IMG/VR virus record: IMGVR_UViG_3300023208_000003 | Coordinates: 64,001 to 128,000 of that record | Source of the DNA: a virus | Direction: 5' to 3' (one strand) | Length of the DNA: 64,000 nucleotides | Shown: piece by piece, positions 20,073 through 61,573 of the stretch | How positions within the stretch are numbered: position 1 is the first letter of the stretch | Layout of the letters: each line of letters begins with the position of its first letter | Made by a program: the position numbers and the translations under genes | Notes under the pieces: generated by a model | Databases searched by the model: none | What the model was told of the DNA's origin: nothing | Seen by the model: the letters and a program-made list of their open reading frames with translations, nothing else

Positions 20073-20486
20073 TTATAGTTTCGCGTACTCGCTTAGTCCT
20101 GTCTCAATAAGGTCAGCTTTGCAATCAAGCAAATCACCTGATCCGTCTTGTCGATAATGTTGATTTATAATTTCAATTGCCTTTTTTAATTTTTCTGGTT
20201 TATTACAAATAATGTTTTTTATATTTTTTATTAGCAAAAACTTTAAAATTCGTTTTAGAGATGTACAATCAGTGCAACTAAAATCACCGTCAACTGAAGA
20301 TGGCGCGCCTTGTAGAGATGTCAGTGACGTACAATCAGAGCAACTAAAATCACCAGTTAAATGACAACCTGGTGTATAACCAGGATATTTTTTTGGTAAT
20401 TTGGATAAATCTGTCCATTTGGCAGGTACTTTAATATTACCTTTATAAGTTGGGATTACATTTTCAAATAATTGATTTATTTTCAT
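20073..20486 (-). CDS. 'YAKL' paralog family member with 22-aa LRR-like repeats
   Basis: MKINQLFE leader, DFSC(S/T)DCTSL repeats spaced 66 nt apart, C-terminus DLLDCKADLIETGLSEYAKL. Confidence 0.8.
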   Translation of the reverse strand: MKINQLFENVIPTYKGNIKVPAKWTDLSKLPKKYPGYTPGCHLTGDFSCSDCTSLTSLQGAPSSVDGDFSCTDCTSLKRILKFLLIKNIKNIICNKPEKLKKAIEIINQHYRQDGSGDLLDCKADLIETGLSEYAKL

Positions 20487-23400
20487 TATGTTAGTCTTCC
20501 TTGTCTTAATACATCCCGCGTCAAATCTGCTACAATCTCAATATCAGTAATCTTAGCGGCAGATTGCAAAATCTCATCCATACCACACTGTACAGTAAAA
20601 AGTGAGCCAAATGAATTAGTTGAGAATACAGGCACAAGTACAACTGAAGAAATTTCAGTTGGAAGACGCTGGTGAATTAACGCGATAAGTTCAGTAGCAT
20701 AGAAACTATTACCAAAATCCCAATTAGAAATATCAAAATAAGTGTTAATTACATTTAGAACTTCTTGTTTAATAACTTCGGTTGAAAGTTTTGCTGTTGG
20801 AGCAATAACAACTTTAAAGCGCGCGCGTAGCTGCGGTTCTGCAAGTTCACCAAATAACAATCTAATTTTTCCTGAGTGAAGGACAATCGTATCTGAAAGC
20901 ATCTTATTTTCAAGCAGATAGCCATATGACTGACGAAGCTCAAGAGGCGTTGGTGGAACTGGAGGTACAGTTGACAAGCCACGAATATATGAAATTACGT
21001 TGTTGTAGTAACCGCTAGTTAAGATAAATGCGTCGTGTATGTTTGATGCTGATGGGTCAATCATATTTGTATGAGGAGCATAATGCTGCCACATAAAATC
21101 TAAGTTTTTACGCGTCATAAAGCGTAAATAATTACCAGTTGTATCAACCATTGAACCTGGATTAAAAGTAACTGATGGCCAACCAATAGGAATAGAATCA
21201 TAATAAATTGATGAAGGTGTAATTGGCACAGTTGTGTACACAAACATATTCGCTGAAAAATTTTCAAACTGCAAAAGCTTATCAGGAATAGTGTCTCCAG
21301 ATACTGAAAGCTTTAACGCATCTGATGGCATAATTTCAAGTGCGTGAATGTTAATAACGCCATCACCATCAACAACTGGACCAACAACATCATAATTTTC
21401 ATTATGACCAAGTGGTAATCCATTAGGCTTTAAGTTTGAGCGAAGAACACGAACAGTATCGTACACGCGATCTTTTGTCTCATTATCAAGAATTTGATCG
21501 GCTTGATTAAACCAAAACTTTGTATTTTGAGATGATGCCACAAGTTTCAGTGAGCGGTAATGAATTGTAAATCCAATTAAGTCATTTGTAACTGGCGCTA
21601 ATATTCGCTCGATCCAAAAAATCCACGAAGATATTGGATCAGTAGGATCAAATCCTAAAGAATCTGGATTTGCTGGCAGCGAAGTACCATTTATAAGTTC
21701 CCAGTAACCATTAAGATTAAAAGTTGAAATATAATCTGGAAGCAATGGGCCTGCGTAGCCAGCTGGTGGACGTAAAATAAAAGCGTCACCTTGTTTAAGA
21801 TCAACATTCGTTACTAGAAAATCAATTGGTGAACTAGTGTCAACTAATGAATACTGTTTATCAACAACGCCATTAGAAAGATTGCCGCGAATAGAACTTG
21901 TAACATAAAGAGTTTTTTCATCTGCTGCAACTTCAATAGTGAAAACTTCTAACTCAGCAATAGCGCTTGTTATTGAACCAGTTAATGTTCCTGAACCTCG
22001 CATTGCTGTTTTACGATTAAAGCGTAAACCAAAGCGTTGCTGAATAGCAACGGTCTGTAAGCGAGACCCACTATCACCATTTACGTAAGGTGTTACACCA
22101 TCAATTGTTCTTGGTAAGGTATCCTGCCAAATTTTGCCATCATCACTTGAACCTGACGTACCAGCTCCGCTTGGAATTAGCGCGTAAGTAACACCATTTA
22201 TGGTTGTCAAACCTAAAGGCTCACCGTACCAATGACGATCAAGCGCACCCTGTATCATTGTTTTTTCTAGAAGAGGGATTCTATTATCTTCAATAAAAAG
22301 ACGACGTGGTGATGAGATAACGCCTATTAAATCAGGATCTGTTGCTGAAATATGAAGCAACATATTCATAATAGAAGTTGAAGAAAGCAGCGGCTCAATT
22401 ACATTATCAATTAATGAGCGCGCTGAAACACTTGTATTTTGAACTTCAGTAGTTAAATTGTAACGAAGCTGAAGATCATCACCAAACAGTTTAATATTTT
22501 CATATGTTCCTGACGCGTCATTCCAATCAATCCATTTTGGCTGGCCAGCAAATGTGCGATTGATTGTAAATAATCGAAGAATTGACTGATCTTTTAACAT
22601 AAACGTATTATGATCAGCAGCGTTGACCATTCTGTTCTGAGCGTAATATGTAGAAGGCGCTGATTGACGAACATGATCAATTGTTTCAGACGCAGCAGAG
22701 TTTTGAATAGCTGATGTAAGTGAAAATGTTAAAGAGCAAGTTTCATTTAAACCTAAATTCGAAGTGTATGAAAATGAAATAGGTTGATTTTGAATTCTAT
22801 TTGCTTGAATTACAATCGGCTTGTTAATTGATTGACGAGTCCAAATTTGGAACGTTCCAATAGGCATATCACTATAGTCACCATCCCCAAACAACAACTT
22901 TACACGATCATTTTCTAATGTTTCAACTTCAAACTTTTTACGATTTGTAGTATTATTAAAAAACAAATTTTGTTCAGCTAACGTACTTACTTGTTCCCAG
23001 CGTTCAAGAACATTTCCATTTGTGTCAACACGTGAAAGCCAAACGTCTGTTTCATTAACATTTTGAAGAGCAAGCTCAAGTGTTCTGTTTGGAATCTGAG
23101 AACTAATAGTGTAATCAGTTCTAACGAGGCCGCCCTGTTTTACGAAAAGTAAAATTCCAGTGTAATCAGAGCCATCTCCTAAACCATCACTAGAGTAAAT
23201 AAATGAAAGAGATTGCGATGGATCAGGTGTTCTTTCAAATGGTCCATTTTCATCAATGTCAACAGGAACAATTTCCATTGGAAATTGTTCAGTTCCAGTA
23301 TCAGCAATAAATGGAAAAACACCATTTACAAATGTTGATGAAATATTTGCAAAGTTATACAATTGAAGACTAACATCGCCAACTTGCACTGACTTTTGAG

Positions 23401-23899
23401 GTTGCCCAAATTTTCCAGTTAAAACGTGATTTAGCACTAAGAAAAATTGTTCCTTCCAATTTGAATTATTAGGATCATTCCACTTAATCACTGTGTTTGC
23501 GAGATTAATACCTTGCGAGTCAATAATTCTTTCTGAAGTAACAATTGATGTTATTTTTACAAGGCCACGGCCTGGAATGTTTCGTGTCACCTTGTATGAA
23601 ATTAACTTAGCAAGACGAAGAATTGATTGTTTGCGCTGAGCAGTCGTAATAAAGTTTTCATGTGACAGCATATCAACACGATACGCGAGAACTTCTGCTA
23701 CATAAGCAAACATTTCAAGGAAAGCAATAAACTCAGATGACTCAATAAAGTCATTGAAACTTTCTGAATAGTACAACTTAACGTAATCAAGCAGAGCTGC
23801 TTTAACTGTATCAAAATCGTAGGAAACAAATGAGATATTGTTAAACGCCTCGTACACACGTTCCCAAGATTCTGCACTGTAAATATTTCGAATTGCCAT
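20486..23899 (-). CDS. gp6: Baseplate wedge subunit, gp6-like
   Basis: YDFDTVKAALLDYVK...NDFIESSEF...ENFITTAQRKQSILRLAKLISY is the typical gp6 N-terminus. Confidence 0.8.
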   Translation of the reverse strand: MAIRNIYSAESWERVYEAFNNISFVSYDFDTVKAALLDYVKLYYSESFNDFIESSEFIAFLEMFAYVAEVLAYRVDMLSHENFITTAQRKQSILRLAKLISYKVTRNIPGRGLVKITSIVTSERIIDSQGINLANTVIKWNDPNNSNWKEQFFLVLNHVLTGKFGQPQKSVQVGDVSLQLYNFANISSTFVNGVFPFIADTGTEQFPMEIVPVDIDENGPFERTPDPSQSLSFIYSSDGLGDGSDYTGILLFVKQGGLVRTDYTISSQIPNRTLELALQNVNETDVWLSRVDTNGNVLERWEQVSTLAEQNLFFNNTTNRKKFEVETLENDRVKLLFGDGDYSDMPIGTFQIWTRQSINKPIVIQANRIQNQPISFSYTSNLGLNETCSLTFSLTSAIQNSAASETIDHVRQSAPSTYYAQNRMVNAADHNTFMLKDQSILRLFTINRTFAGQPKWIDWNDASGTYENIKLFGDDLQLRYNLTTEVQNTSVSARSLIDNVIEPLLSSTSIMNMLLHISATDPDLIGVISSPRRLFIEDNRIPLLEKTMIQGALDRHWYGEPLGLTTINGVTYALIPSGAGTSGSSDDGKIWQDTLPRTIDGVTPYVNGDSGSRLQTVAIQQRFGLRFNRKTAMRGSGTLTGSITSAIAELEVFTIEVAADEKTLYVTSSIRGNLSNGVVDKQYSLVDTSSPIDFLVTNVDLKQGDAFILRPPAGYAGPLLPDYISTFNLNGYWELINGTSLPANPDSLGFDPTDPISSWIFWIERILAPVTNDLIGFTIHYRSLKLVASSQNTKFWFNQADQILDNETKDRVYDTVRVLRSNLKPNGLPLGHNENYDVVGPVVDGDGVINIHALEIMPSDALKLSVSGDTIPDKLLQFENFSANMFVYTTVPITPSSIYYDSIPIGWPSVTFNPGSMVDTTGNYLRFMTRKNLDFMWQHYAPHTNMIDPSASNIHDAFILTSGYYNNVISYIRGLSTVPPVPPTPLELRQSYGYLLENKMLSDTIVLHSGKIRLLFGELAEPQLRARFKVVIAPTAKLSTEVIKQEVLNVINTYFDISNWDFGNSFYATELIALIHQRLPTEISSVVLVPVFSTNSFGSLFTVQCGMDEILQSAAKITDIEIVADLTRDVLRQGRLT

Positions 23900-34523: not shown

Positions 34524-35045
34524 ATGAACCTCCTGCAAGAAATAGACCTCATCGCTGAGGAAACCAAAACCGAGAAAGACTTGGTAAAGATGTTCAAGGA
34601 CGCCAAAGACAGCGGCGCACTTAAGAACTATGTCCTTTCTGAAACCTATGACGTTCGTCCACTCAAGATAGACGAAGAAGTCAAAGTAAAATTCCCAGGA
34701 TTTACCTCTAAAACCGAAAAAGCGCAGGAAGGCGAGAGCTTGTTGCGTGTTCACGATAAACCAAATCTTCAACGCATTATTGATGAGGAAGAACTTGAAG
34801 ATAGTTACGCTCCTATTCGTCCAAATGAAAAACCAGATGCAGAAGGATTTACGCTTTATCGTAGCGTTAAAACACTTCAAGCTTTTCAATATACTGAGGA
34901 CCAACCTCTGGTCTTCCAGGGTAACGTAGGAGGCTCATTGCATGTTAAAATGAATGACTATATCGCTCGTGACGTAGCTAATCCCAAGAGAGTCCTAGTG
35001 TTTCCTGGTCCAAAGTTTGAAGACAAATATACTGAAACCAAATGA
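34524..35045 (+). CDS. Hypothetical protein, 173 aa (MNLLQE leader)
   Basis: Intact ORF with AAGG SD. First gene of the late array. Confidence 0.7.
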   Translation: MNLLQEIDLIAEETKTEKDLVKMFKDAKDSGALKNYVLSETYDVRPLKIDEEVKVKFPGFTSKTEKAQEGESLLRVHDKPNLQRIIDEEELEDSYAPIRPNEKPDAEGFTLYRSVKTLQAFQYTEDQPLVFQGNVGGSLHVKMNDYIARDVANPKRVLVFPGPKFEDKYTETK

Positions 35046-35692
35046 AAGTTCAAAAGCTAATTTCTGAGAGCCCTGGTTCTGGTTCTTTTACTATTATGTG
35101 CACTAAGCAAGTAAAAAGTAATGTTCAAATTGATATGTTTGAGCAAAATTTTAAATATCTTGCGTCACAAAATTTTAAAGATGAAACTGTTAGATTGGAT
35201 AGTTCCTCTGGTAGAATTAATGTCGGAATACAATTTAACAATTCTTCACGAACAATTTTTCCTAAAAAAGTAGCAGAAATAATTTTAAAATTTGTAACAA
35301 ATTATACTGGAAGTTCCGTGTTTCCACCAGTAAAAATGCATGTAAATTATCCAACGTTGATTTTGTTAGATTTTAGTGATCAAGATGATCGAATTGTTGA
35401 TCAAACAGTCGACAATGAACATTTAATGATTAATGGATTTACGCTCAAAGACATTCATAAACACATTAAAAATATTGATTCGATTTATTGTAATGATAAA
35501 ATCACAGATAGCGTTTTAGGTCTATTATTAATTGAACACAGTCTTCGTTGTTTTGAAGAAGTTGTAGGCGTTCCATCTTTAAATGAAGACTGGATGGAAA
35601 TAGTTAATAAACACTTAAGTGGCGATAAAGATGTTCTTGAATGTAAAACAGATTTAATTGAAAAAGGATTTCCAAAGTTGGCAAAAATATGA
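35042..35692 (+). CDS. 'YAKL' paralog family member
   Basis: MKVQKLISE leader, C-terminus LGLLLIE...IVNKHL...DVLECKTDLIEKGFPKLAKI. Confidence 0.8.
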   Translation: MKVQKLISESPGSGSFTIMCTKQVKSNVQIDMFEQNFKYLASQNFKDETVRLDSSSGRINVGIQFNNSSRTIFPKKVAEIILKFVTNYTGSSVFPPVKMHVNYPTLILLDFSDQDDRIVDQTVDNEHLMINGFTLKDIHKHIKNIDSIYCNDKITDSVLGLLLIEHSLRCFEEVVGVPSLNEDWMEIVNKHLSGDKDVLECKTDLIEKGFPKLAKI

Positions 35693-36359
35693 AAGTCAAG
35701 CAACTTCTTCAAGAAGCTCAGCGTGGAATGTTTTACTTTACATTCAACTCAGCTCAGCTCAAACAACGTATGAAAATTCTCTCCTTCTGAAAGATGATTT
35801 ACAGGTTGCAGCAGAAAAGCTCGGTGCTGAAGTAGAGTTCATTGGACGTACTGAAGATGATGACGATGAAGGCAGACTCACGAGTAATTATGGGTTCAAG
35901 ATTTATCATCACTCAGGTGATCTTCACCCGAAACAACTTGGTATTGTTCTCAATAATCTTTATGTAAAATACACAAATGGAGATGTTGATGTAAGTAACA
36001 CAATGGTAACTCCAACAATGGGACTTCACTTGCCAGTCAATTTTCTTGTTGACTTTTCAGATGGCACAGCTACATTTGTAAATCAATTTATAAATCAATA
36101 TTTCGTAAATATTGCAGGAACCGATTTACATAATATTCACAAGCAAATTCAGCACATTGACGCAATATTTATAGATGATGATGTGAAATCGGGTGGGCTT
36201 GGACTTATGCTAGTTGAAGATTTAGTAAATGTTTCTGGGATAAAGCAAACACTTCAGTGGCGAAACATTATAACCAAGCATCTCAAAAATGAGCGCGATG
36301 TGCTTGATTGCAAAGCAGAGTTAATTGAGAAAGGGTATTCAACGCTCGCAAAACTATAA
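35689..36359 (+). pseudogene. Frameshifted 'YAKL' family member
   Basis: The ATGA-coupled start MKVKQLLQE stops at TGA 35788-35790. The family body and C-terminus (DVLDCKAELIEKGYSTLAKL) are in another frame. Deleting one CTCAG unit fuses the two. Confidence 0.75.
35748..35761 (+). repeat. Pentanucleotide tandem repeat CTCAG x2.8 at the frameshift site
   Basis: ctcag-ctcag-ctca read directly. Confidence 0.85.
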
Positions 36360-36371: not shown

Positions 36372-36917
36372 ATGATAGAAGAAGAAAAAAAGAAAAGAAA
36401 GAATAGTAAAGCAAAAGGAAATGGCTTTGAAAGTAAAGTTGCAAAAATTTTAGCAGAGCACCTAGCGCCTTTAAAATTTATTCGTACCCAAAGTTCTGGA
36501 GCTCGTGTAGGTGGAAAAAACTTTGGAACAACTGGACAGCTTTTTAATCAACAGACACTTTCGCTTTTCGTGGGTGATGTGGTTGCCACAAATGATGGCG
36601 AAGACGGTCACTGGTTTAGGTTTGTAGTTGAATGCAAATTTTATAAGGAACCTGATACATTAGATCAGCTGCTTACTCGTAAAGCAAAGGTATTTGGCTG
36701 GCTGAATGAAGTTGATGTTGATAAAGTAAAGGTTGGTAAAGAAGGAATTGTCATAATGAAGTTTAATGGAAAAGATCCATTGATAGCCGTTAGACCTGAA
36801 ATTGAGCTACCTTTTAAGAATTACTTAACAATTGGGAATGCAAAGATTGGTTATCTTGCAGACGCACTAGAACACCCGGAATTCTGGTTAAAAAATGAAA
36901 ATACAACAGCTACTTGA
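36372..36917 (+). CDS. Holliday junction resolvase-like PD-(D/E)xK nuclease
   Basis: NSKAKGNGFESKVAKIL...RTQSSGA...GDVV...VECKFYK. Confidence 0.7.
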   Translation: MIEEEKKKRKNSKAKGNGFESKVAKILAEHLAPLKFIRTQSSGARVGGKNFGTTGQLFNQQTLSLFVGDVVATNDGEDGHWFRFVVECKFYKEPDTLDQLLTRKAKVFGWLNEVDVDKVKVGKEGIVIMKFNGKDPLIAVRPEIELPFKNYLTIGNAKIGYLADALEHPEFWLKNENTTAT

Positions 36918-37567
36918 AAATCAAGAAGTTAAATCTCACTTTACAATGCATGAGATTTATCCTGAAATGTCAAAAATAAAAAGTGAGTTTGTAAATATGC
37001 CACAAGGTAAAATTTCAAAATTAATTGAAAAGAAACTCAAACTATTAAAGACGAAATATGGATTTGACGCTATTCCGACAGCTTTTTTTTAAAACTCATT
37101 CTAATGACTTTTTTTTTGGAGAGTATGGAATTACGTTTACTTTCAGTGACAGAACAGCAACAATTGATCTTACAAAACTTAGAAATGAAACCAATTTAAC
37201 TTTAGGACTATCTTCTAGAAAAAATAATTACACTACGCTCGAATTTAATTGTCCACTAAGTTTAACATTCAAAACTGATAAATCATTTAGTGAAGCATTA
37301 TGCGAATTCGCAGCAAACGGAAAAACTCTGCAGAATATTCATAAAATTATTCCTGACGTTTATAGTTTACGTGTAGTTGATACAATTGAAAGCAACGTGT
37401 TAGGGCTTGTTTTAATGAAAAAATTAGAAGCTGGGTTTATTGATTTTGGAGCATCAAATAAAGATTGGTCATTAATAGTCTGTCGTTATCTTCACAGCAA
37501 TCGTGACCTGCTTGAATGCAAAACTGAGTTAATTGAAAAAGGATTTGGAGCTTACGCAAAGCTATGA
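36895..37567 (+). pseudogene. Frameshifted 'YAKL' family member (T8 tract)
   Basis: The MKIQQLLE ORF ends GCT TTT TTT TAA (37081-37092). The family C-terminus (DLLECKTELIEKGFGAYAKL) continues in the +1 frame. T7 would restore one ORF. Confidence 0.75.
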
Positions 37568-38325
37568 AAATAAATCAATTATTTGAAGAAGTTAATCACT
37601 ACGCCACCATTCGCTTTCGTCTGAGTCCCTTTGTGGTTGATGATGAAACTGGCGAGCTTTTACCGATTAAGCGCTGGCAAAAAGACGGGGTTGACGCCTT
37701 TAACGTCGACAGTGATGCTTGGAAAGAAACACTGCAGTTGGTTAAAAACGCTAATGTTGATGGTTTAAAAATGTTCAGAATGTCTGCCCAATCAAGAAAT
37801 AATAGTGATCTTGGGTATGATTTTATTTTTTACGTGACAAAAGCAATCAACGTTGATCAAGCGCTTTTAGAGCTTCACAGTAAGATCGCTTATTACGATT
37901 CTCATTCGGAACCTAAGAAAGGGAGTGCGATGTATGTGAACTCCATCGTCTTTATTTCTCCTATTCCAGCTGGTCTTACCTTTGATGAGGAAAAAACTCG
38001 AGACTTGCAGAAGTGGAACTGGGACGGTATTGCGCTTGGCGGAAGAAGTGCTTCTGCTGCGCAAAATGAGCTTTCACTTGCAAATATCAAACACATCAAG
38101 TGCTTCAATTTATTTTTGTTCGGTAAGGTAGTAAGTAACGCGTTAGGCATTTTGCTAAATCCTACAATACGAACGCTAACTTCAGCATCAGGATTTAAAT
38201 CGCCTAATCAAGTATGGAATCCTTGGATCCCAATAGTCACTAAGCATTTAGATGGCGATAAAGACATTCTTGAGTGTAAAACAGATTTGATAGAAGCTGG
38301 TTACAAGGAACTCGCGAAAATCTAA
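37564..38325 (+). CDS. 'YAKL' paralog family member
   Basis: MKINQLFEE leader, C-terminus DILECKTDLIEAGYKELAKI. Confidence 0.8.
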   Translation: MKINQLFEEVNHYATIRFRLSPFVVDDETGELLPIKRWQKDGVDAFNVDSDAWKETLQLVKNANVDGLKMFRMSAQSRNNSDLGYDFIFYVTKAINVDQALLELHSKIAYYDSHSEPKKGSAMYVNSIVFISPIPAGLTFDEEKTRDLQKWNWDGIALGGRSASAAQNELSLANIKHIKCFNLFLFGKVVSNALGILLNPTIRTLTSASGFKSPNQVWNPWIPIVTKHLDGDKDILECKTDLIEAGYKELAKI

Positions 38326-38326
38326 A

Positions 38327-38356
38327 TTGTACTTTTTCTTACTTTGATGTTATAAT
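38327..38356 (+). promoter_or_regulatory. Sigma70-type promoter
   Basis: TTGTAC-N18-TATAAT with a TGn extended -10. Confidence 0.7.
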
Positions 38357-42630: not shown

Positions 42631-42671
42631 GCTTAAAAATTTGATATACTTCAAAAATCCTCAATCTTTCT

Positions 42672-42679
42672 GATAAATA
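42672..42679 (+). promoter_or_regulatory. T4-type late promoter (GATAAATA) inside an inverted repeat
   Basis: Motif match 28 nt upstream of 42707. Confidence 0.6.
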
Positions 42680-42706
42680 AGTCATCACCTTTATCAGATT
42701 GTCTTA

Positions 42707-43375: not shown

Positions 43376-44000
43376 ATCATATCTTCAGGAAGAAGATCCT
43401 CCAAGAATTTTCTTTGATCCTAATTATACTTTTTACGATAAGAATGACATTCATTCAATGCGTGATTTAATTCACATACAGCCTGATTATGTTACAGGGT
43501 GCATCATCAAAAATGATTTTGATATCAGCGGTTTGAAAAATATTAAGAGTTGGGATGACGGTCCATCGTATATAGCAGGAACGTTATATGCTGCAGACAC
43601 TGGTTTTACTACGCTAAAAGGAATGCCAAAATATATTGGTTCTGATATTAATCTTCGTATGTGTATGGGATTAACTACTCTTGAAGGGTGTGTTCAAGAG
43701 TGTAATGGGTATTTTGCTATTTCAAATTGTGTTAATCTAGTTTCATTAAAGTGGATGCCTAAGAAAATAACAGGAATTTTATTAATACGATTCTGTCATT
43801 CGCTAAGAGGTATTCTTTCTATTTTACTCTGTGATGGAATAATTGCAATCAAAGATGAAATTACAACAAATCAAAATAACGCGCAGCTACGTGAAGCCAT
43901 GCGAATTGTAAAAGATCATTATTTTAATCAAGATAGAGATATTCTTGAATGTAAAGCAGAACTAATTGAAAATGGATTAGGTGAGTATGCAAAGCTTTAA
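43362..44000 (+). CDS. 'YAKL' family member, LRR-like
   Basis: MQSFKSYLQE leader, LRR-like repeats, C-terminus DILECKAELIENGLGEYAKL. Confidence 0.85.
   Translation: MQSFKSYLQEEDPPRIFFDPNYTFYDKNDIHSMRDLIHIQPDYVTGCIIKNDFDISGLKNIKSWDDGPSYIAGTLYAADTGFTTLKGMPKYIGSDINLRMCMGLTTLEGCVQECNGYFAISNCVNLVSLKWMPKKITGILLIRFCHSLRGILSILLCDGIIAIKDEITTNQNNAQLREAMRIVKDHYFNQDRDILECKAELIENGLGEYAKL
43938..43976 (+). repeat. 39-nt perfect direct repeat, copy 1
   Basis: GATATTCTTGAATGTAAAGCAGAACTAATTGAAAATGGA, identical to 44557-44595. Confidence 0.9.
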
Positions 44001-44619
44001 ATCATTCCTAAATGAAGAAACTCATACAATTCGCTTTGATATTGGCGTTCCTGAATCTGTTGAAGATTTAGCTGAACTTACTGAGGTTTATAATAAAGGA
44101 CCTCAAATATACGTTCCTGGCTGTAAAATTGAAGGTGCATTTTTTGCTACTAATTCTAAAATTAAAAATTTTAAAAATGGTCCATCATACGTTCGTAAGG
44201 AAATTATGGCTGATAGATGTCGAGAGCTTGAATCTCTTGAAGGTATGTGCGATTCAGGTAGCTATGTTTCGCTTGAACGTTGTGATAAGCTTACAACGCT
44301 CGAACATATTCCAAACGTAATTCAAGGCTGGTTGAATATTAATTTTTGCTCAAGCTTAGAAACTCTCAAGCATTTTCCAAAAGCGATTATGGGTGCACTT
44401 TACATTCGTGAGTGCAACGAGATTAGAAATGTGATGCGGCTTTTGATGTGTCATCAAATTTTTAGATTCGATTTTGAAAAAGACTTTCCAGAAAATCCTC
44501 AACTGTCCGAAGCTCTTACAATTATAGCAAAAAATTATAAAAAGTCAGGCGATGCTGATATTCTTGAATGTAAAGCAGAACTAATTGAAAATGGACTAAG
44601 TGATTACGCGAAACTATAA
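43987..44619 (+). CDS. 'YAKL' family member, LRR-like
   Basis: MQSFKSFLNE start at 43987 (14-nt overlap, as for 43362), C-terminus DILECKAELIENGLSDYAKL. Confidence 0.85.
   Translation: MQSFKSFLNEETHTIRFDIGVPESVEDLAELTEVYNKGPQIYVPGCKIEGAFFATNSKIKNFKNGPSYVRKEIMADRCRELESLEGMCDSGSYVSLERCDKLTTLEHIPNVIQGWLNINFCSSLETLKHFPKAIMGALYIRECNEIRNVMRLLMCHQIFRFDFEKDFPENPQLSEALTIIAKNYKKSGDADILECKAELIENGLSDYAKL
44557..44595 (+). repeat. 39-nt perfect direct repeat, copy 2
   Basis: Identical to 43938-43976. Confidence 0.9.
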
Positions 44620-48700: not shown

Positions 48701-48933
48701 CATCACCAACAGCGACAACTGAAAAAACAGAAGAAACTACACTCGCGGATGTTGCTGCACTCTTACAAAAGCTTGTCGATATTGAGCAGAAAAATCTTAC
48801 TTCTCAACAGGATCAGTTTGACTATATGAAAAGTCTGAAAGGATCTGGTTTAGCAGGAGCTGCTGCCGCCACCGTGCTCGACGCTTTCGGTAATTCTTTT
48901 TCTTCAAAATTTGACATGTCACAGAGGGCATAA
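45757..48933 (+). CDS. Tape measure protein
   Basis: 1058 aa, Ala/Lys/Glu-rich and helical with a Gly/hydrophobic central segment. Adjacent to gp26/gp51-like genes. Confidence 0.7.
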   Translation: MAASDNTELLKSLDRLRGTIESLSRITETSETRRRQRVEGGGGEFKPKDVKKTFTEFYVSVGKASKSFKDTAEAMTDLHEAAHLTSEEHDKLTASILKSSNIIELYNDQTHKTIRSMRQFDEENRRTAANLDDVFSMLDKEINGSTKKYAELIKHIKDANGDYKKIRGTALTYMMAINDAKDSIKGFEKGLDSSLEEIQKAYDAAAKKQKAIQENTKRNYAAAQAASNIQQKFGVFGEAITGVASKAVIAGAILTELWKGAKLAWDQLTILGKAGLASEFGNIWNSSFHLGVNFEKMTAITKDSMAAMRLSKKNIDEFTKEVSANQNALTAFTYSTEDSAAGLMAMRSDLLDMGAAFDNTPTLNKAMASQTASFAKLNAMTGASMEEFIRLNKELGTSSSVQMMLLGLDKKARLQKIEDLKQAREYYATMGMSAQEAQEMVKRIQDIGKEKVVDRFEQAAQLRRSMTMLGIAGGAEAQQNLLSGKFRNDPEAAKKLQAAIQATQVGLDRWKMSNNIQKELQADTLIATLGPLFNQFSDSNRQNQLRQEAADDKRIIADAEARKQQASDGTLFLKELGGKFDAIMSGPLGNIIKAGGFAAAGLFGGKLWSKGKDWFVNRGASKTAEGAAEDAGKIAKKSGGKVLGFLGRFGEAFGKIATKIPWEGMGRMLGKTLGPIAIIGESLFNMSKTAEIFGKEANNVSFSQLLTTYFMGFPKMIGKIIDSIFGTDAESLFDTSTIVISRFFTDLYDGVVDFFQYSWDLVTGHGSDLFDKLSLVMKRVIHSFGNIMSNIADMMQEAPDTIFSMYDRYFGDDEAKERSRKYDEVRAKAKTERDAQHAQDNKAFEDSIKAEMQKITQKRAESDAAFKAQQASKKSEKDKQRAQEDDAFVQTMVNRNRKKAADAAKKDAEEAAAKNKNANNALSQLMSDPKSFLGLTNWANLSNNLAQTVTSGGTTGISGGPTINSNVAPIVAAQAATSSGNASPTATTEKTEETTLADVAALLQKLVDIEQKNLTSQQDQFDYMKSLKGSGLAGAAAATVLDAFGNSFSSKFDMSQRA

Positions 48934-50582
48934 TGGCAACTTGGGTAAATTATTGGCGAATTATTACGCCAGCTTCTAAAAAGCAGCAATACACGCATTT
49001 AGCGACAGATACTCTATCAAACACAAATCCAAACGCTGTAGCGTCAATTTCATGGTACTCGCAGATCATGAAAGGCGCTGGAACTCGTTTACAACGTTAT
49101 ATCCAATACGAAGGCATGGATGGCGACGTTGACGTATCACGCGCTCTTGATATTATTGCCGAAGAAATTTCAAATGATGACGAACGTACAGGTTTGCCAT
49201 TTTTAATTGAGTATCAAAATGAAGAAGATGAGGAAGTATCAGAAACTATTGTTTCAACGCTAAGAGCGGCTGTTCGACATTGGGCAAGAATACAAGATTT
49301 AAACAATAGAATTTTTAGAACTGCCCGCACGATGGTTAAGTACGGAGATTGCTTCTTTAGAAAAACTACTGACTTTAAGAAATGGGATTTTGTTGACCCA
49401 TCAAAAGTTTTAGGCATTGAAATTAACGAAAAAAATGAGCGAGTTGCGTATCACTTAAAAAAGGGTGAGGGCACTGTAACAGTAGGCGGGCGCAACGATA
49501 ACGTTGAAATTGTTCCAGCTGACGCAATAATTCACTTCTCACTTTCGGATGAAATGGAAGATATGGCTCCATTTGGTGAGTCTGTTCTTCAACCAATTTT
49601 TAGAACATTCAAACAGCTTTCAATGCTTGAAGACTCAACAATCATTTATCAGATTGTTCGCGCGCCTGAACGTCGAGTATTCTACATTGACGTTGGTAAC
49701 ATGCCACAGCAGCGCGTGGCAACTTATTTAGAATCTATTAAGAATCAAATTCGTCAAAAACGTCAACCAAATACAACCGCTGGAAAGGAAAATGTTGACG
49801 GTGTATACAATCCAAACTCCATTCAAGAGGATTTCTTTTTTCCTGTAACGACATCTGGACGTGGTTCGCGCGTTGAAACTCTTCCTGGCGGCGAAAATCA
49901 AGGGCAAAATGAAAATCTTCTTTATTTTCAAAAGAAGATGTTTAGAGGCCTTCGTATTCCAACTTCATATATGGTTGGCCAGGATGGTCAACAAGCTCAA
50001 TATAACGATGGTAAGGTTGGTATTGCTTATATTGAAGAACTTCGTTTTGCAAACTTTATTAAACGTCTTCAAAATAAGCTTGAAAGCGTTTATGATTATC
50101 AGTTCAAAATATATCTGAATGCCGCAAACATTATTGTAAATGAGGAGCTCTTTCTTTTAAAACTTCCTGATCCACAAAATTTTGCTCTTTATAGACAAGC
50201 CGCACTTGACACTGATCTTATAAATGCGTTCAAGTCTGTTGAAGATGTTGAGTATCTTTCACGTAGATTTATTTTAGCTCGTTACCTTGGTTTAACTGAG
50301 GATGAAATTCAAATGAATGAAGCAATGCTTAAGCAAGAACGCGCTATTCGTGAGGATGTTAATCTTTCTGATCTACAGCAAATATATGACAAAAAGGTTT
50401 ATGAAAATCGTCCAGAACAAAAAGTTGAAGAGCCAGAAGCTGAAGGTGGTGAAGAAATGGGTGGCGGGGAACCTGGTGGTGAAGAAATGGGTGGAATGGG
50501 TGGCGCGCCTGAAGAAATGGGTGGCGGAGGAGCAGAATTACCACCAGGAGGACCTGGTGGTGAAGAAAATTTAACAATTTAG
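48933..50582 (+). CDS. gp20: Portal protein
   Basis: LEDSTIIYQIVRAPERRVFYIDVGNMP...EDFFFP...LPGG...YFQKKMFRGLRIPTS. Confidence 0.95.
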   Translation: MATWVNYWRIITPASKKQQYTHLATDTLSNTNPNAVASISWYSQIMKGAGTRLQRYIQYEGMDGDVDVSRALDIIAEEISNDDERTGLPFLIEYQNEEDEEVSETIVSTLRAAVRHWARIQDLNNRIFRTARTMVKYGDCFFRKTTDFKKWDFVDPSKVLGIEINEKNERVAYHLKKGEGTVTVGGRNDNVEIVPADAIIHFSLSDEMEDMAPFGESVLQPIFRTFKQLSMLEDSTIIYQIVRAPERRVFYIDVGNMPQQRVATYLESIKNQIRQKRQPNTTAGKENVDGVYNPNSIQEDFFFPVTTSGRGSRVETLPGGENQGQNENLLYFQKKMFRGLRIPTSYMVGQDGQQAQYNDGKVGIAYIEELRFANFIKRLQNKLESVYDYQFKIYLNAANIIVNEELFLLKLPDPQNFALYRQAALDTDLINAFKSVEDVEYLSRRFILARYLGLTEDEIQMNEAMLKQERAIREDVNLSDLQQIYDKKVYENRPEQKVEEPEAEGGEEMGGGEPGGEEMGGMGGAPEEMGGGGAELPPGGPGGEENLTI

Positions 50583-50650: not shown

Positions 50651-51262
50651 ATGGCAAAAGAAATTTTGATTGAAAACATTTCGCCAATTCAGGCAAATTT
50701 AGTTGAATCAATTGATACTGAAAAAAATTATTTTTTGACAGGTATTTCAATGCAGGCCAATATTCGTAATGGCAATAATCGCATTTATCCACTTGAAGAA
50801 ATCTCACGTGAAGTTCAACGAGTACAAGAAAATTTAAAAAAAGGAAGCTATGTGCTTGGAGAACTTAATCATCCAGATACCTTAGCAATCAATCCATACA
50901 ATGCGTCTCACGCAATTATGGAAATTAACATGGATGGTGAAAATGCTGTTAGTAAGATGAAACTTCTTGATACCCCTGCTGGTAATATTGCACGTGCAAT
51001 TTTAGAAGGCGGTGTTCGCTTAGGTGTTTCATCTCGTGGTGCCGGTAATGTTGGAAATGATGGAAGCGTTTCTGATTTTCAACTTGTAACAATTGACATT
51101 GTTCATCAACCATCAGCACCTAACGCATATCCAAATTTTGTTCGTGAAGCTCAAGAGAACACAAAGATTGTAACTCTTGCTGAGTCTGTTGTTCACGATA
51201 AAGCTGCTCAAAAATATTTAGCAGCGGAGATGAAAAAATTTATCAAAAGCATTTTGAATTAA
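50651..51262 (+). CDS. gp21: Prohead protease
   Basis: NGNNRIYP...LGELNHP...LGVSSRGAG...DIVHQPSAPNAY. Confidence 0.95.
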   Translation: MAKEILIENISPIQANLVESIDTEKNYFLTGISMQANIRNGNNRIYPLEEISREVQRVQENLKKGSYVLGELNHPDTLAINPYNASHAIMEINMDGENAVSKMKLLDTPAGNIARAILEGGVRLGVSSRGAGNVGNDGSVSDFQLVTIDIVHQPSAPNAYPNFVREAQENTKIVTLAESVVHDKAAQKYLAAEMKKFIKSILN

Positions 51263-51595: not shown

Positions 51596-52495
51596 ATGGA
51601 TGAAATCCTTAATAAATTATTGGAATCCGAGTTGCTAAGCGACGAAACGAAGACTGAAGTTTCAACTCTCTGGAACTCTGCCGTATCAAAGAAAATGGCA
51701 GAAATTAAAGAAGAAGTTGAATTGGAAGTTCGCGCAGAACTCGCCGAGCAATGGACAAAAGACCGTGAAGCCTTCATTACGAAGGTTGATACATTTGTAA
51801 CCGAGCAGCTTACTACTGAACTTGCAGACTTACGTGGCGATATTGAGCGCTTCCGTGATCTAGAGGTTGAGTACAGCGAGCGTCTCGTAGAAGAAAAGAA
51901 GAAAATTGCAGAAGAAGTTGCAAAAGAAATGGATACTCTTGTTGACAAGATTGATGCATTCTTTGAGCTTCGTATTGCAGAAGAGATGGCTGAATTCAAG
52001 GAAGACCTTGAAATCGTTAAGCAGAACGAGTTTGGTCGTAAAGTATTTGAGGCATTTGCTTCAGAGTACGCGAACTCCCACGTTGATGAAGAAAGCAACT
52101 CTACTAAGCTTTCAATTGCTGAAAGCAAAGTTGCTGATCTTACCAAGCGCCTAGCGGCACTTGAAACTGAAAAGAACAAAATGATTCGTGAATCTAAAAT
52201 GGCTGAAGTTCTTAAGCCACTTTCTGGCGAAAAACGTGAGTCAATGGCATTCATCCTCCAAAACGTTGAGACCAACAAACTTGAAGAAGCTTACAAGCAC
52301 TTCATTGGTCGCATCTTAAAGGAAGAAAAGCCTGCTTCTGAAAAGAAGGAAGAGGTTCTTAAAGAGTCAACCACTAAAGTTGTAACTGGCGAAGAGAAGA
52401 ATGCAGAAATCATCAAAGAAGAAAAATCTGCAGCAGCTCCAGCCTCCAGCAGCAATCTTGATAGTATCAGACGCTTAGCTGGTATCAAGAAATAA
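51596..52495 (+). CDS. gp22: Prohead scaffold protein
   Basis: Glu-rich coiled coil directly upstream of the major capsid gene. Confidence 0.85.
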   Translation: MDEILNKLLESELLSDETKTEVSTLWNSAVSKKMAEIKEEVELEVRAELAEQWTKDREAFITKVDTFVTEQLTTELADLRGDIERFRDLEVEYSERLVEEKKKIAEEVAKEMDTLVDKIDAFFELRIAEEMAEFKEDLEIVKQNEFGRKVFEAFASEYANSHVDEESNSTKLSIAESKVADLTKRLAALETEKNKMIRESKMAEVLKPLSGEKRESMAFILQNVETNKLEEAYKHFIGRILKEEKPASEKKEEVLKESTTKVVTGEEKNAEIIKEEKSAAAPASSSNLDSIRRLAGIKK

Positions 52496-52520: not shown

Positions 52521-53747
52521 ATGGAACTATTTGAAAATTGGCAAGAAACTAAAGAAGTATTGCTTGAAGGCGTACCTGAGCACAAGAAGAGCTATGTTGC
52601 TTCTGTAATGGAAACTCAGAAAAAGTACCTTACTGAAACTGCTGCCGCTACTGCCAGCAACTCAACCGCTATCAGCAATTTCCAGAAGATCGTCATTCCG
52701 ATGATCCGCCGTATTATCCCAGCAACTATTGCTACTGAACTCGTTGGTATTCAGCCAATGCCTGGTCCAGTATCTTTGGTTTATTCATTACGTTTCCTCT
52801 TTTCTGAGAACGTAACAACCGTACCAGCACAGACACCATCTGAAGACATCGTTGGTCTTTCTACTGAAGTTTTCTCAAACAACAGTAAGACAAAACGTTG
52901 GTATTCTACTTCTAATGTCTCTGCACCGAGCGGTGGCCCAGCAGCTGCTACTTCAGCAGGTGAAGCTGCTCTTACCTCTGATTACGAAAGTTTCGGCGGT
53001 CGTGCAATGCAGCTCGAAGTTCTTAAGCAGACTGTAACTGCTGGTTCACGTAAGTTACAAGCTAAGTGGACTATCGAAGCTATGCAGGATCTTTCTGCGC
53101 AGCACGGTCTTGATCTTGAAGCTGAAATTACTGCAGCTCTTTCTGCAGAAATCGTATCTGAAATTGATAACGAAATCATCAACAACCTTATCCAGCTTGC
53201 TGGTACTTCCGACAGCTTTGATATGTCTGGTACTTTTACTGGCGTACCTAACTACGTTGGTGATCGTCACGCAGTTCTTGGTGTATTGATTAACAAGGTT
53301 GCTAATGAGATTGGACGTAAGACACGTCGTGGTCCTGCTAACTGGATCGTTGTTTCCCCACTTGTTGTTTCTATCCTCCAGTCAGCTGCTAAGTCTGTCT
53401 TTGCTCCTGCTGTTTCTGGTTCTTTTGAAGGTCCAAACAACACCAAGTTGGTTGGTACTTTGAATGGAAATATCAAGGTTTACACCTACTTGTACCATGA
53501 CACTGGCGTTGAGCCAATTCTTCTTGGTTACAAGGGTGGTAATGGTGAGTTGGATGCAGGTTATTTTTACTGCCCATACATCCCATTGATGGCTTCTCAG
53601 GTTATTACTGATCCATCTACCTACAACCCACAAATCAGCTTAATGACCCGTTACGGAAAAGCAACTTTCCTTAACAGCACAACAAGCCTTGGGAACTCAG
53701 CCGACTACTACGGAAAAATCACTGTTTCGAATTTGACTTTCCTCTAA
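52521..53747 (+). CDS. gp23: Major capsid protein
   Basis: IRRIIP...VGIQPMPGPVSLVY...SRKLQAKWTIEAMQDL...EIDNEII...FYCPYIPL...MTRYG. Confidence 0.97.
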   Translation: MELFENWQETKEVLLEGVPEHKKSYVASVMETQKKYLTETAAATASNSTAISNFQKIVIPMIRRIIPATIATELVGIQPMPGPVSLVYSLRFLFSENVTTVPAQTPSEDIVGLSTEVFSNNSKTKRWYSTSNVSAPSGGPAAATSAGEAALTSDYESFGGRAMQLEVLKQTVTAGSRKLQAKWTIEAMQDLSAQHGLDLEAEITAALSAEIVSEIDNEIINNLIQLAGTSDSFDMSGTFTGVPNYVGDRHAVLGVLINKVANEIGRKTRRGPANWIVVSPLVVSILQSAAKSVFAPAVSGSFEGPNNTKLVGTLNGNIKVYTYLYHDTGVEPILLGYKGGNGELDAGYFYCPYIPLMASQVITDPSTYNPQISLMTRYGKATFLNSTTSLGNSADYYGKITVSNLTFL

Positions 53748-57864: not shown

Positions 57865-57866
57865 TT

Positions 57867-59639
57867 ATGGCAGAACCTACATCTTACGTTCCATCACAAC
57901 TTTGCATTGGACAGTGGCGTCTTCAAGACAATGCTGGTTGTAACAACGATTCTTCAACTCTTGAACAATACGTAGCTGAATCAATTGAGATAGCTGGTGC
58001 TCCAATGAATGTCTTTAAATTGCTAGGCGTTCACGAGCAAGGTCGTCTAATGGATTTAACTGGTTTTGGAACACCACTTTCGAGCGGCTCTTTAGCTGGT
58101 TCTGACGTAACAAACGCGTTTGATATTTCAGCTGATAGCTGGAAATCCGCGCAAGTAGGGTCTGCTGTAGTTGCAACTCCTGCTTGGATTGGTTACTTTT
58201 TTGGAACAAAAAAGACTAGCTTTGGAATGGATAAGTATAAACCTTCCAGCCCAATTCTTCAGCATATAACAACACTTAAAATTCAACAAGGCCCGAATAT
58301 TCAAAATCGCGCTTTACAAGTGCGTGTTGATCGTTCGGATGGAAAGCTTGATGCGAGACTCGTCTCACAATTTATTACGAGCGCAGCTGTTTTATCTAAC
58401 ATAAGGGCCGCGCAAACTGCAAAGTGGGGAACTGTTTACGTTACTGCAACAAGTTCTACTCAAATTTCTGTTTCTGGCCCTTCTGGAATCGAAACAGGGA
58501 CGATCGGTTCTTTTAAAGGCACTGACGTTCTATTTGACCTTCAAGGTCCAATGAATACCGGTGATATTTTTAGAATTGAACTAGACGTGAGGTGGAAACG
58601 TGCAGACATTATCAACCTTCCTAATACTAGCAATCTTGAACAAATTGCCATCAGACAGACCGCCCCATCCTCGTACTGGCGCATCGTCCCACTTATCTTT
58701 AATGGTGGAGCGACCGATTCGTGGGAAATTGTCAAGCTCGAACTCATTGATTTTCAATCGACCTCAATTGACAATATTGAAGATACCTTATTTCTCGAGA
58801 ATCGAGACAGAGATTATTCAAATACGTCAATTGAACTCAAGGCCCAATATCAACCAGTAGATTCAATTGGAGATTTAGGTAAATTTGGTTTTAATTTATT
58901 AGATCAATATGCTTTTAGTGTTTCATTTAGTCGAATGGTTGAGCTTCTTGGTAGGCCTATTGTTGTCGGTGACGTTATTGAAGTTACACCTGAGCTTGCC
59001 TATGATCAAAATTTAAAACCGATCAAGAAATTTTTAGAGGTAATCGACGCCTCATGGGCAGCTGAAGGATTTACCCCCGGCTGGAAGCCATTGATCTATA
59101 GATTTACAGCAGTCCCGCTTTTGCCATCGCAAGAACATCGTGATCTATTTGGAACGCCTGATGAGCAGCTTTACAAAGTTGACGATGGAACCTTTTTTAA
59201 CAACATTGGTCAACATCAAAACGCTCAACTAACTGTTGCTGAAGACGCGGCAACAGTTGCGCTTGACCAGGTTCCAGAGATAGGAGCTGACCCACAGGAA
59301 ATTGCTAGTGGTGCTCCACTCCTTAATAACGTAAACAAACTTGGTGAAAGAACTGACCAGCAAGATATGTATGTTCAGGACGCTATTCCACCTGATGGTT
59401 TACCTTACAAAGAGGGGTATACGTTTCCTGACGCAAATACCGCGTTGGACGGAGATTATTTCCGGCAAATTTATCCGCCTGACACCAGAATACCCGCTAG
59501 ACTGTACAAATTTAATGCAATCAAGCACCGCTGGATCTACCAGGAGACTGATATGCGTGATAGCTATAGTAGCCATAAGCCATCCATCCGCAGTGCCCTG
59601 GTGTCATTAGGGTCTAAGAGTTTAAAGAGTGACCTATGA
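57867..59639 (+). CDS. gp14: Neck protein gp14 with inserted domains
   Basis: SIEIAG...LFLENRDRDY...DLGKFG...RPIVVGDVIE. Confidence 0.75.
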   Translation: MAEPTSYVPSQLCIGQWRLQDNAGCNNDSSTLEQYVAESIEIAGAPMNVFKLLGVHEQGRLMDLTGFGTPLSSGSLAGSDVTNAFDISADSWKSAQVGSAVVATPAWIGYFFGTKKTSFGMDKYKPSSPILQHITTLKIQQGPNIQNRALQVRVDRSDGKLDARLVSQFITSAAVLSNIRAAQTAKWGTVYVTATSSTQISVSGPSGIETGTIGSFKGTDVLFDLQGPMNTGDIFRIELDVRWKRADIINLPNTSNLEQIAIRQTAPSSYWRIVPLIFNGGATDSWEIVKLELIDFQSTSIDNIEDTLFLENRDRDYSNTSIELKAQYQPVDSIGDLGKFGFNLLDQYAFSVSFSRMVELLGRPIVVGDVIEVTPELAYDQNLKPIKKFLEVIDASWAAEGFTPGWKPLIYRFTAVPLLPSQEHRDLFGTPDEQLYKVDDGTFFNNIGQHQNAQLTVAEDAATVALDQVPEIGADPQEIASGAPLLNNVNKLGERTDQQDMYVQDAIPPDGLPYKEGYTFPDANTALDGDYFRQIYPPDTRIPARLYKFNAIKHRWIYQETDMRDSYSSHKPSIRSALVSLGSKSLKSDL

Positions 59640-60361
59640 GATTTAAACAATTTTTAACAGAAGCCAAAATTCCAGAATTTGTAATACCTGCATTCTTTTG
59701 GTTTTCAGATGATTTTGCTAATTCAGTTTCAATGACGTTAAATTCAGCCATAGAAATATGGATGTCTGAAGACTCAATACAGAAGTTAATGATGCTAGTC
59801 AGAGGAGGCGTAACGCTAAAATGTACAAATTATGAACGTCAAACTAAAGCAGCTGTTAAAAATGGTTGGACGCTATTTGAAGAAGAGCACAATTTTGATA
59901 GTTATGAAGGAATACTTTATAAGAAGAGTCAAGAAATTCAATATCCTAAACTTTACTATTATCAATCTCAAAATTTATCAAAAATTCCAGCTGGTATGAA
60001 TATGGACGCAACTATAGTTGCAAATTTGGCGTTTAATAATTTATCTGACTTTGAAAACTTGCCGCATAATACTGCGCATTGTTTCTTAAATTCTAACAAA
60101 TATACATCACTCTCAGGAATACATAAGCAACTTAAGGATTGTTATCAACTTGATATTGAAAAGAACCCGATTAAAGAATCTGTTTTAGGATTGCTCTTAA
60201 TTAAAGGACTTTATGATTTTTCATTTGAAGGAGTTCCAGCAAAAGCTTATGACGCAATTTACTTAATTATGAAACATCATAGACATGAAGAAGCTGGAGA
60301 TGTTCTCGAAGCAAAAGCAGAACTAATAGAAAAAGGATTTAGCCAGTATGCGAAGCTTTAA
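59636..60361 (+). CDS. 'YAKL' family member
   Basis: MRFKQFLTE leader, C-terminus DVLEAKAELIEKGFSQYAKL. Confidence 0.8.
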   Translation: MRFKQFLTEAKIPEFVIPAFFWFSDDFANSVSMTLNSAIEIWMSEDSIQKLMMLVRGGVTLKCTNYERQTKAAVKNGWTLFEEEHNFDSYEGILYKKSQEIQYPKLYYYQSQNLSKIPAGMNMDATIVANLAFNNLSDFENLPHNTAHCFLNSNKYTSLSGIHKQLKDCYQLDIEKNPIKESVLGLLLIKGLYDFSFEGVPAKAYDAIYLIMKHHRHEEAGDVLEAKAELIEKGFSQYAKL

Positions 60362-60920
60362 GCAATTTATACGTGAAAATATCGACGGCGTAAAAAATGG
60401 AATCTGGTGTACCTCACCACCAGAAAATCCTCTTGAGTATAATGCTACAGATTTAAGAACAATTTTAGATTTCAATAATTATGAAGAAGACCATCTTTAT
60501 AATGATGTTGAATTTGCGTTCTACAAAAAGCTAAATACTCTTGAAGGCTGTCCTGAAAAAGTTATTAATTATTTTTATCTAAACTTTTTACCTGAACTTA
60601 AAACGCTTGAGTATGCTCCTAAATTTGTCGGAAATTCAGCTTATCTTTCATCATTAGATCTTTCAACGTTGTCTGGCATTGGTAAGCGCTTTTTCAATGA
60701 AATTAAAGTTATGCTTTCATTTGATAATTGCACAATTGATTCATCTATTTTAGGGCTCTTATTGATTAAGGGGCTTTCATCCTGTGTTTCAGTTTTTAAT
60801 GGCGGTAAAGATTTAGAACGTGCGATAATCGTAATCAACAACCACTTACCTGATCGTGATATTTTAGAAGCAAAAACAGAACTTATCGAACTTGGATATT
60901 CACGATACGCAAAGCTATGA
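60348..60920 (+). CDS. 'YAKL' family member, LRR-like
   Basis: MRSFKQFIRE leader, LNTLEGCPEKV/LKTLEYAPKFV repeats, C-terminus DILEAKTELIELGYSRYAKL. Confidence 0.8.
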   Translation: MRSFKQFIRENIDGVKNGIWCTSPPENPLEYNATDLRTILDFNNYEEDHLYNDVEFAFYKKLNTLEGCPEKVINYFYLNFLPELKTLEYAPKFVGNSAYLSSLDLSTLSGIGKRFFNEIKVMLSFDNCTIDSSILGLLLIKGLSSCVSVFNGGKDLERAIIVINNHLPDRDILEAKTELIELGYSRYAKL

Positions 60921-61573
60921 AACTATTAGAAATTACATCTCCTACATACAAACACTCAGATGTTGAATTAGCTTTTTACACAGCCGATGTTAAACGCTTG
61001 TATCAACTTGTGGATGCTGTTACAAAAGAAAAAATAATTAAAGAGATGCTTGATGTTAAAAAATACGGGGTTTATTTTTTAGGCGAAGATTATCATAATG
61101 AAGCATGCTCGATCTTTTACTCATTTGGGTGTGAGGATCCAATATCTTCAGCCGGGGTTAAAGAAATTTATCGCAGTGTTGAAAAAATATTTGAATCTTA
61201 CGGAATTAACACAGAAGAATTATTGGCCGGTCTCAATTTTTATAAAATGCCTGATAAAGTTTGGGTTAAAAGTGATCATTCTTCTCCAAATTTTTATCTT
61301 TCAGCAAATGAAGAATTTACCAGCTTATGTGGAATTTCCAAAAAGATTAAATATGAAGTTGTTGATGATATTGACATTGAGCACGTAGAACGCATCACAG
61401 AAGGTGGTCTAGGATTTTTATTAATTGATAATCTTAGAACAATTTATACTCTTCCTGCAAAAAAAATATTATGGCTGAGCATTATAAATGAGCATCTTAA
61501 AGGAGAACGAGATATTCTTGAATGTAAAACCGCTCTTATTGAACAAGGACAAGGAGCTTTTGCTAAAATATGA
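60917..61573 (+). CDS. 'YAKL' family member
   Basis: MKLLE leader, C-terminus DILECKTALIEQGQGAFAKI. Confidence 0.8.
   Translation: MKLLEITSPTYKHSDVELAFYTADVKRLYQLVDAVTKEKIIKEMLDVKKYGVYFLGEDYHNEACSIFYSFGCEDPISSAGVKEIYRSVEKIFESYGINTEELLAGLNFYKMPDKVWVKSDHSSPNFYLSANEEFTSLCGISKKIKYEVVDDIDIEHVERITEGGLGFLLIDNLRTIYTLPAKKILWLSIINEHLKGERDILECKTALIEQGQGAFAKI

Follow-up and report, generated by a model that had tools for sequence, protein, structure and literature searches.

The internal protein IPI* of bacteriophage T4 blocks the GmrSD restriction enzyme. Across the T-even phages, the internal proteins are diverse anti-restriction proteins that share only a capsid targeting sequence (CTS; PMC3012670). 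In T4 head proteins the CTS is an N-terminal propeptide of 10-20 residues, and the protease gp21 cleaves after Glu, for example at ITE-6 and LTE-619 in Alt (PMC5694885). SPN3US gp53 and gp54 and the inner-body proteins of phiKZ are likewise diverged paralogues that carry conserved propeptides at their N-termini, lose them through cleavage after Glu by a gp21-related protease, and are packaged in the head (PMC5694885). Here we describe a protein family encoded in a 64,000-nt window (bases 64,001-128,000) of the 197,099-bp linear IMG/VR viral contig IMGVR_UViG_3300023208_000003. The source is a T4-type jumbo phage, a distant relative of T4, and the family is best explained as a birth-and-death multigene family of this phage, with proteins of about 200 residues built in three parts: a short leader, an exchangeable core and a constant C-terminal module. 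We favour the reading, with a probability of about 0.5, that these are head-packaged, protease-trimmed and injected binding proteins.

The initial annotation of the window, made from the letters and their open reading frames (ORFs) alone, had described fifteen paralogues at four loci that share a C-terminal block behind variable N-terminal parts. Searched with a profile built from the last 94 residues, the window yields precisely these 15 genes (E-values of 7e-34 to 3e-22, far beyond chance), their arrangement in four loci is right, and the block, of about 90 residues, is present in all of them (Table 1; members are called here by their start positions, 20073 being the low coordinate of a minus-strand gene). 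The same profile finds 19 further copies elsewhere on the contig, bringing the total to 34, or about 12% of the recovered contig by arithmetic from gene lengths. The window consensus reads ...D-x-L-(E/D)-(C/F/A)-K-x-x-L-I-E-x-G-x-x-x-x-A-K-(L/I)-stop, in which D, L, K, L-I-E, G and A-K are invariant across the window copies; on the contig, L-I-E occurs in 31 of the 33 copies scored. The variability of the N-terminal parts was also borne out: residues 13 to -92 of 33 contig copies sort into 22 groups between which BLASTP finds no similarity (the frameshifted 35689 copy was left out because its truncated reading is too short). In a tree the paralogues branch very deeply; neighbours are often sisters, yet some sisters lie at different loci.

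At their N-termini, most copies carry a leader of 6-11 residues in one of two forms, M-x-(N/S/T)-F-K-x-(F/Y)-L-x-E (class A) or M-K-(L/I/V)-x-E-(L/I/V)-(F/L)-E (class B). These two patterns match 25 of the 34 family genes but only 2 of the 180 other contig ORFs of 80 residues or more (Fisher p = 6e-23), and 132 of 171 full-length family proteins from the contig and metagenomes are leader-bearing (51 class A, 81 class B, 39 other). Of 41 class A leaders, 29 have Glu at position 10; in class B, Glu dominates positions 5 and 8; and the leader termini carry an (L/I/F)-x-E motif. The wording is nearly that of the short N-terminal leaders of T4 IPI, IPII, IPIII, Alt and gp24, which end in (L/I)-x-E: in the T4 record (NC_000866), IPII and IPIII start MKTYQEFIAE/A, IPI starts MKTFKEF and gp24 starts MAKINELLRE/S (here and in Table 1 a slash follows the Glu that ends a leader or cleavage motif). 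In AlphaFold models the leader region is floppy, with a predicted local distance difference test score (pLDDT) of 45-57. We considered a Sec or lipoprotein signal and rejected it, as the N-termini are charged, not hydrophobic. Outside the window, at contig positions 16555-18466 on the minus strand, two adjacent ORFs have N-termini that resemble the family leaders (MITFRQFINDD and MKLSLKEFLEQ) but no C-terminal module; judged by these N-termini, they may be other leader-tagged cargo.

The source phage resembles T4 also in encoding a gp21-type protease, a scaffold, a portal and a gp23-type capsid protein. When the two capsid proteins are aligned, KKYLTE39 of the local protein falls on SFLTE65 of T4 gp23, the site at which gp21 cleaves gp23. 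Given this alignment, the gp21-type protease here is very likely to follow the (L/I/F)-x-E rule found at the ends of the leaders. A gp21/S77 protease is present in every family-bearing genome large enough to judge, namely the source contig, the Ralstonia jumbo phage RsoM2USA (ORF379) and two further genomes (G001 and G002). The genomic context in the window also favours packaging, as four copies are coupled through overlaps to genes of the baseplate or neck and the 42707 array follows a motif that is likewise seen ahead of structural genes.

RsoM2USA is the closest cultured relative of the source phage and provides the sole experimental datum. Its ten major virion bands, resolved by sodium dodecyl sulfate polyacrylamide gel electrophoresis and identified with LC-MS/MS, include ORF89, of 28.57 kDa and unassigned function (PMC8504454). 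We find that ORF89 is a family member (profile E 2e-10) with the N-terminus MKTFKQFLSE and a computed mass of 28.56 kDa. Virion proteomics had been named as a check in the initial annotation, and the published band supplies such a link: it is a virion association of one homologue, at gel-band level.

This band would fit equally well if the proteins were external virion parts, that is, small LRR (leucine-rich repeat) adhesins or decoration proteins on the neck, baseplate or fibres that diversify for host-surface recognition. Consistent with such a role, copies lie between genes for the baseplate wedge, the neck and the sheath stabiliser, an array in a different lineage (ten tandem copies) adjoins gp13 and gp15 homologues together with a terminase gene, and LRRs are common as adhesin folds. 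However, Pfam and PHROGs scans revealed no attachment domain in common with known fibre or neck proteins, at least 34 different small proteins of monomer size are many for defined structural sites, and a leader ending in a protease motif would be left unexplained. We therefore regard an external location as improbable.

To describe the fold of the family, we built AlphaFold models of 42707 (LRR type) and 39035 (alpha/beta type) with a 132-sequence alignment. In both copies, the constant block is modelled as the last LRR-like turns followed by two C-terminal helices, with pLDDT of 85-98. The 42707 model (overall pLDDT 83.8) has strands about every 22 residues, and its top 50 structural matches in VIA-align are all LRR or L-domain proteins with Z of 10-12.6 (at the maximum of 12.6, a root-mean-square deviation of 3.3 over 142 residues). 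The LRR fold was visible only with VIA-align; Foldseek against the PDB returned weak LRR or L-domain rows only (E >= 0.09). These matches uphold the LRR-like arrays that the initial annotation saw in some members, but the alpha/beta domains it saw in others are weakly supported: that part of the 39035 model has a pLDDT of 55-70 and gave only generic ferredoxin/ACT-like matches, with Z no higher than 5.6. Pfam and PHROGs scans of ten window members gave nothing meaningful (no Pfam LRR model at E <= 1), and the module profile, run against PDB sequences, had no match better than E 0.07. Thus no known domain was matched to the block by these searches, in keeping with the earlier failure to recognise a characterised family; a match to a characterised domain of unrelated function, which the initial annotation had named as refuting its interpretation, did not turn up.

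The block had also been interpreted as a delivery or assembly tag. The architecture behind that idea, a constant module joined to a variable LRR or other domain, stands, but a delivery role at the C-terminus does not follow from it, and the N-terminal decapeptide is the likelier signal. Since the module is well packed in the models, it appears to be a folded cap and chassis rather than a loose or detachable peptide tag; as modelled, the constant C-terminal block is a structural LRR cap, part of the solenoid itself. Some observations nonetheless speak for a tag, either a helix hairpin that binds scaffold or shell or a C-terminal propeptide cut at L-I-E, possibly acting together with the leader. 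The L-I-E tripeptide fits the (L/I)-x-E motif in nearly all copies scored, the module lies almost always at the very C-terminus in the best 150 of 1,722 metagenomic matches, and C-terminal processing is documented for T4 Alt, which loses 63 C-terminal residues at LTE-619 (PMC5694885). Set against this, so well packed a module should be a poor protease substrate, unlike a free peptide tag, and T4 has nothing like it, and we consider this the least probable of the alternatives weighed here.

Conservation of the tail reflects selection on the protein, because its invariant residues are encoded by four to six different synonymous codons and because it is equally conserved where no gene follows. 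On the same two observations we rejected DNA-level gene conversion or gene overlap alone as the source of the conservation. A lack of both expression and purifying selection had been named beforehand as a finding that would refute the initial interpretation; instead, three orthologous pairs shared with a related syntenic 219.5-kb phage contig (L004; JAWBPO010000001.1, within assembly GCA_038824965.1, deposited as a genome) have ratios of nonsynonymous to synonymous substitution (dN/dS) of 0.11-0.12, compared with 0.04 for neighbouring genes, values that are rough because synonymous divergence (dS) is near saturation. The C-terminal -AKL resembles the peroxisomal targeting signal type 1, a likeness that we treat as coincidence in a T4-type bacteriophage with bacterial-type genes.

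The two frameshifts described by the initial annotation are real in the present assembly. That of the 35689 copy lies at a CTCAG/CAGCT repeat (about 35749-35761), and an intact orthologue from another assembly (P0006) reads straight through. The 36895 copy breaks at a T8 run (37083-37090), where one T fewer would join both frames. Its L004 counterpart is also decayed, and decay of this copy in both phages is consistent with gene birth and death. As the start of the last gene in the third locus, we prefer the ATG at 43987 to the GTG at 43981 given in the ORF list.

If the family is indeed packaged in the head, its parts could work as follows. The leader would dock the protein into the prohead scaffolding core, and the gp21-type protease would then cut the leader off after (L/I/F)-x-E. 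The trimmed proteins would remain in the head alongside the DNA and enter the cell at infection. There, the fast-evolving variable cores, whether made of additional LRR turns or of a small domain unrelated to them, would bind different host proteins, with defence proteins as the obvious guess, while the constant module would serve as a folding and capping nucleus onto which very different cores can be grafted. Packaging via the leader, cleavage, ejection and any target are inferred, and the role as host-protein binders or anti-defence effectors, which the initial annotation had also suggested, is entirely conjectural.

Gene junctions within the arrays complicate the argument from the leader. 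In a tandem array, a gene begins inside the tail of the one upstream: one frame of TATGCAAAGCTTTAA gives Y-A-K-L-stop and the next gives M-Q-S-F-K, and the alternative junction, CTATGA, encodes L-stop and M. Several observations weigh against head packaging. Leader conservation is not wholly independent evidence, because the 14-nt overlap forces M-Q-S/N-F-K, and the co-occurrence of leader and C-terminal module is so tight that simple inheritance within the family could account for the leader. Nine of the 34 copies, 38379 and 40395 among them, have no leader. The proteins are mostly acidic (median isoelectric point 5.7), whereas T4 IPII and IPIII are basic. The RsoM2USA band shows neither a head-internal location nor trimmed N-termini, and packaging leaves the invariant free C-terminus, -AK(L/I), without a specific function.

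Some of these points suit a different account, in which the proteins are cytoplasmic binders for host takeover or anti-defence that are never packaged, their T4-like N-terminus being a by-product of overlap, translational coupling and shared ancestry. The forced M-Q-S/N-F-K and the acidity both speak for this account, and the leader class switches within tree clades, as it should if the junction type sets the class. However, the overlap fixes only the first five (or two) residues, and the T4-like residues 6-10 (F-L-x-E) lie outside it. The leader is also present where there is no overlap with a family tail, as in 42707, which follows an intergenic region, and 59636, which follows a structural gene. 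Furthermore, a homologue is a virion band, and several copies lie within late structural operons. We judge this account unlikely, though it deserves more weight than an external location.

Candidate promoters bear on the same question, and our statements about them are based on position and shared motif wording only. A (T/G)ATAAATA motif (GATAAATA) ahead of the 42707 array resembles motifs before structural genes. The window has 7 exact TATAAATA against 5.3 expected, which is no enrichment, and a generic sigma-70 and terminator scan showed none either. A second motif, (T/G)TGTAC-N16-18-TGTTATAAT, which looks like a phage-specific early promoter of sigma-70 type (extended -10), occurs at window positions 38327-38356, 40360-40388 and 41049-41078 and also at contig positions 155942 and 195764. 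Two of the three window sites precede 38379 and 40395, both leaderless, which favours unpackaged binders for these copies; the third precedes a small basic ORF (41114-41362). With two leaderless members directly behind this sigma-70-like motif, the family is probably not uniform, and some copies may be early, unpackaged proteins.

Head-packaged binders of this kind would be similar to the T4 internal proteins in the highly diverse mature parts behind a conserved leader and in the presence of a relative in virions. They differ in having no sequence homology to them beyond the leader, in number (three such genes in T4 versus 34 here), in their shared C-terminal module and LRRs, which the T4 proteins lack, and in being mostly acidic; packaging and cleavage are, moreover, inferred here. 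Compared with the SPN3US and phiKZ sets, which belong to unrelated protein families with far fewer copies, the leader is short, as those propeptides mostly exceed 100 residues and are cut at A/S-x-E sites. LRR binders such as XopL, SspH1, the IpaH LRR domains and F-box/LRR adaptors share the predicted solenoid fold (Z 10-12.6), the combination of one constant module with a variable LRR face and, if our interpretation holds, delivery into another cell. In contrast to these proteins, the family is confined to viruses, the window copies match no Pfam LRR model at threshold, in many copies an unrelated domain takes the place of most LRR turns, and the constant module is predicted to be a cap rather than a catalytic (NEL) or adaptor (F-box) domain.

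If the proteins are loaded and injected, the T4 internal-protein strategy would extend from three genes to dozens on a modular LRR scaffold, and a sizeable share of jumbo-phage 'dark matter' would be pre-made cargo for counter-defence or takeover in the first minute. A broader proposal, which we consider doubtful as a whole, is that T4-type jumbo phages carry a large, fast-turnover repertoire (12 to more than 34 members per genome) of head-packaged, injected binders on one portable chassis of clip-off leader, exchangeable core and LRR cap, each neutralising a different defence or takeover target at DNA entry, with a dedicated docking or release role for the -L-I-E-x-G-x4-A-K-L tail. The family would also be a naturally occurring collection of small binders of bacterial proteins, and the short leader might serve to load foreign proteins into large capsids. 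Loading and injection are open to direct test in the cultured phage RsoM2USA, with its four members.

Relatives of the module are widespread in metagenomes. Among 1.84 billion cluster representatives, its profile matched 1,722 at E <= 1e-3, each standing for a 50%-identity cluster, and of these 239 reached E <= 1e-10; in the best 150 most proteins have about 200 residues. Source databases name the relatives only 'hypothetical protein' or 'LRR protein' (JGI applies the latter to two), and the nearest Atlas clusters are viral and unnamed. Curated LRR models appear on one metagenomic relative (PF12799) and on 21% of the members of one Atlas cluster (LRR_4). A tblastn search of 50,697 phage records found the module in RsoM2USA only, with Lak-phage matches that cover LRR turns only. 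With the source contig and RsoM2USA as positive controls, the module profile found no member in XacN1, Atu_ph07, SCTP-2, RAS14 or T4, the last being negative even at E <= 10. A complete 359.5-kb IMG/VR phage carries 12 copies and other fragments 2-13. We found no description of the family in the papers searched.

Table 1. Family members and head or tail genes in the window (window coordinates; lengths in residues).
Feature	Position	Strand	Length	Leader	Remarks
Member, short LRR type	20073-20486	-	137	MKINQLFEN	Start overlaps stop of baseplate-wedge gene
Member	35042-35692	+	216	MKVQKLISE	First gene of main array
Member, frameshifted	35689-36359	+		MKVKQLLQE	Remainder in frame of ORF 35658-36359
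Member, frameshifted	36895-37567	+		MKIQQLLEN	Leader and about 60 codons in one frame; remainder is ORF 37058-37567
Member	37564-38325	+	253	MKINQLFEE	L004 orthologue, dN/dS 0.11
Member	38379-39038	+	219	none (MSAEAPLL)	Behind TTGTAC-N17-TGTTATAAT
Member, alpha/beta-type N-domain	39035-39697	+	220	MKVQTLLKE	Modelled
Member	39694-40359	+	221	MKVQTLLESEE	
Member	40395-40985	+	196	none (MSVKLKL)	Behind TTGTAC-N17-TGTTATAAT
Member, LRR type	42707-43375	+	222	MKTFKRFLTE/A	Modelled; late-type motif GATAAATA 35 nt upstream
Member, LRR type	43362-44000	+	212	MQSFKSYLQE	Leader encoded within 14-nt overlap with upstream YAKL-stop
Member, LRR type	43987-44619	+	210	MQSFKSFLNE	L004 orthologue, dN/dS 0.12
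Member	59636-60361	+	241	MRFKQFLTE/A	Start overlaps stop of virion structural gene
Member	60348-60920	+	190	MRSFKQFIRE	
Member	60917-61573	+	218	MKLLEITSP	Stop overlaps start of tail-sheath-stabiliser gene
Baseplate-wedge gene	20486-23899				
Portal, T4-type	48933-50582		549		
Prohead protease, gp21-type	50651-51262	+			Not a family member; presumed leader-trimming enzyme; phrog_207; 28% identity to T4 gp21
Scaffold-like gene	51596-52495				
Major capsid protein, gp23-type	52521-53747	+			Not a family member; KKYLTE39/T aligned with T4 gp23 maturation site SFLTE65/A
Virion structural gene	57867-59639				
Tail-sheath-stabiliser gene	61570-62310				

The contig is 55% complete according to CheckV, and on that basis the full phage genome should be about 360 kb. 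Neck proteins are also encoded in the window. About 1.1 kb without ORFs (41586-42706) separates two of the arrays and gave no Rfam match at E <= 0.1 and no annotation resembling a transfer RNA; a shorter gap occupies the same place in L004 (7048-7938). Directly upstream of the main array, an ORF of 173 residues (34524-35045) starts MNLLQEIDLIAEE, which contains hydrophobic-x-E motifs; it lacks the family module and is highly conserved in the related phage, at 92% identity and a dN/dS of 0.04. Inserted in the array between the two frameshifted copies is a gene for a PD-(D/E)XK-type nuclease (36372-36917; PF24608 in the orthologue), which is conserved in the related phage, also with a dN/dS of 0.04. 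The L004 portal gene (13127-14596) carries an intein, seen as a Pfam Intein_splicing match between two Portal_T4 matches, while the window portal is free of it.

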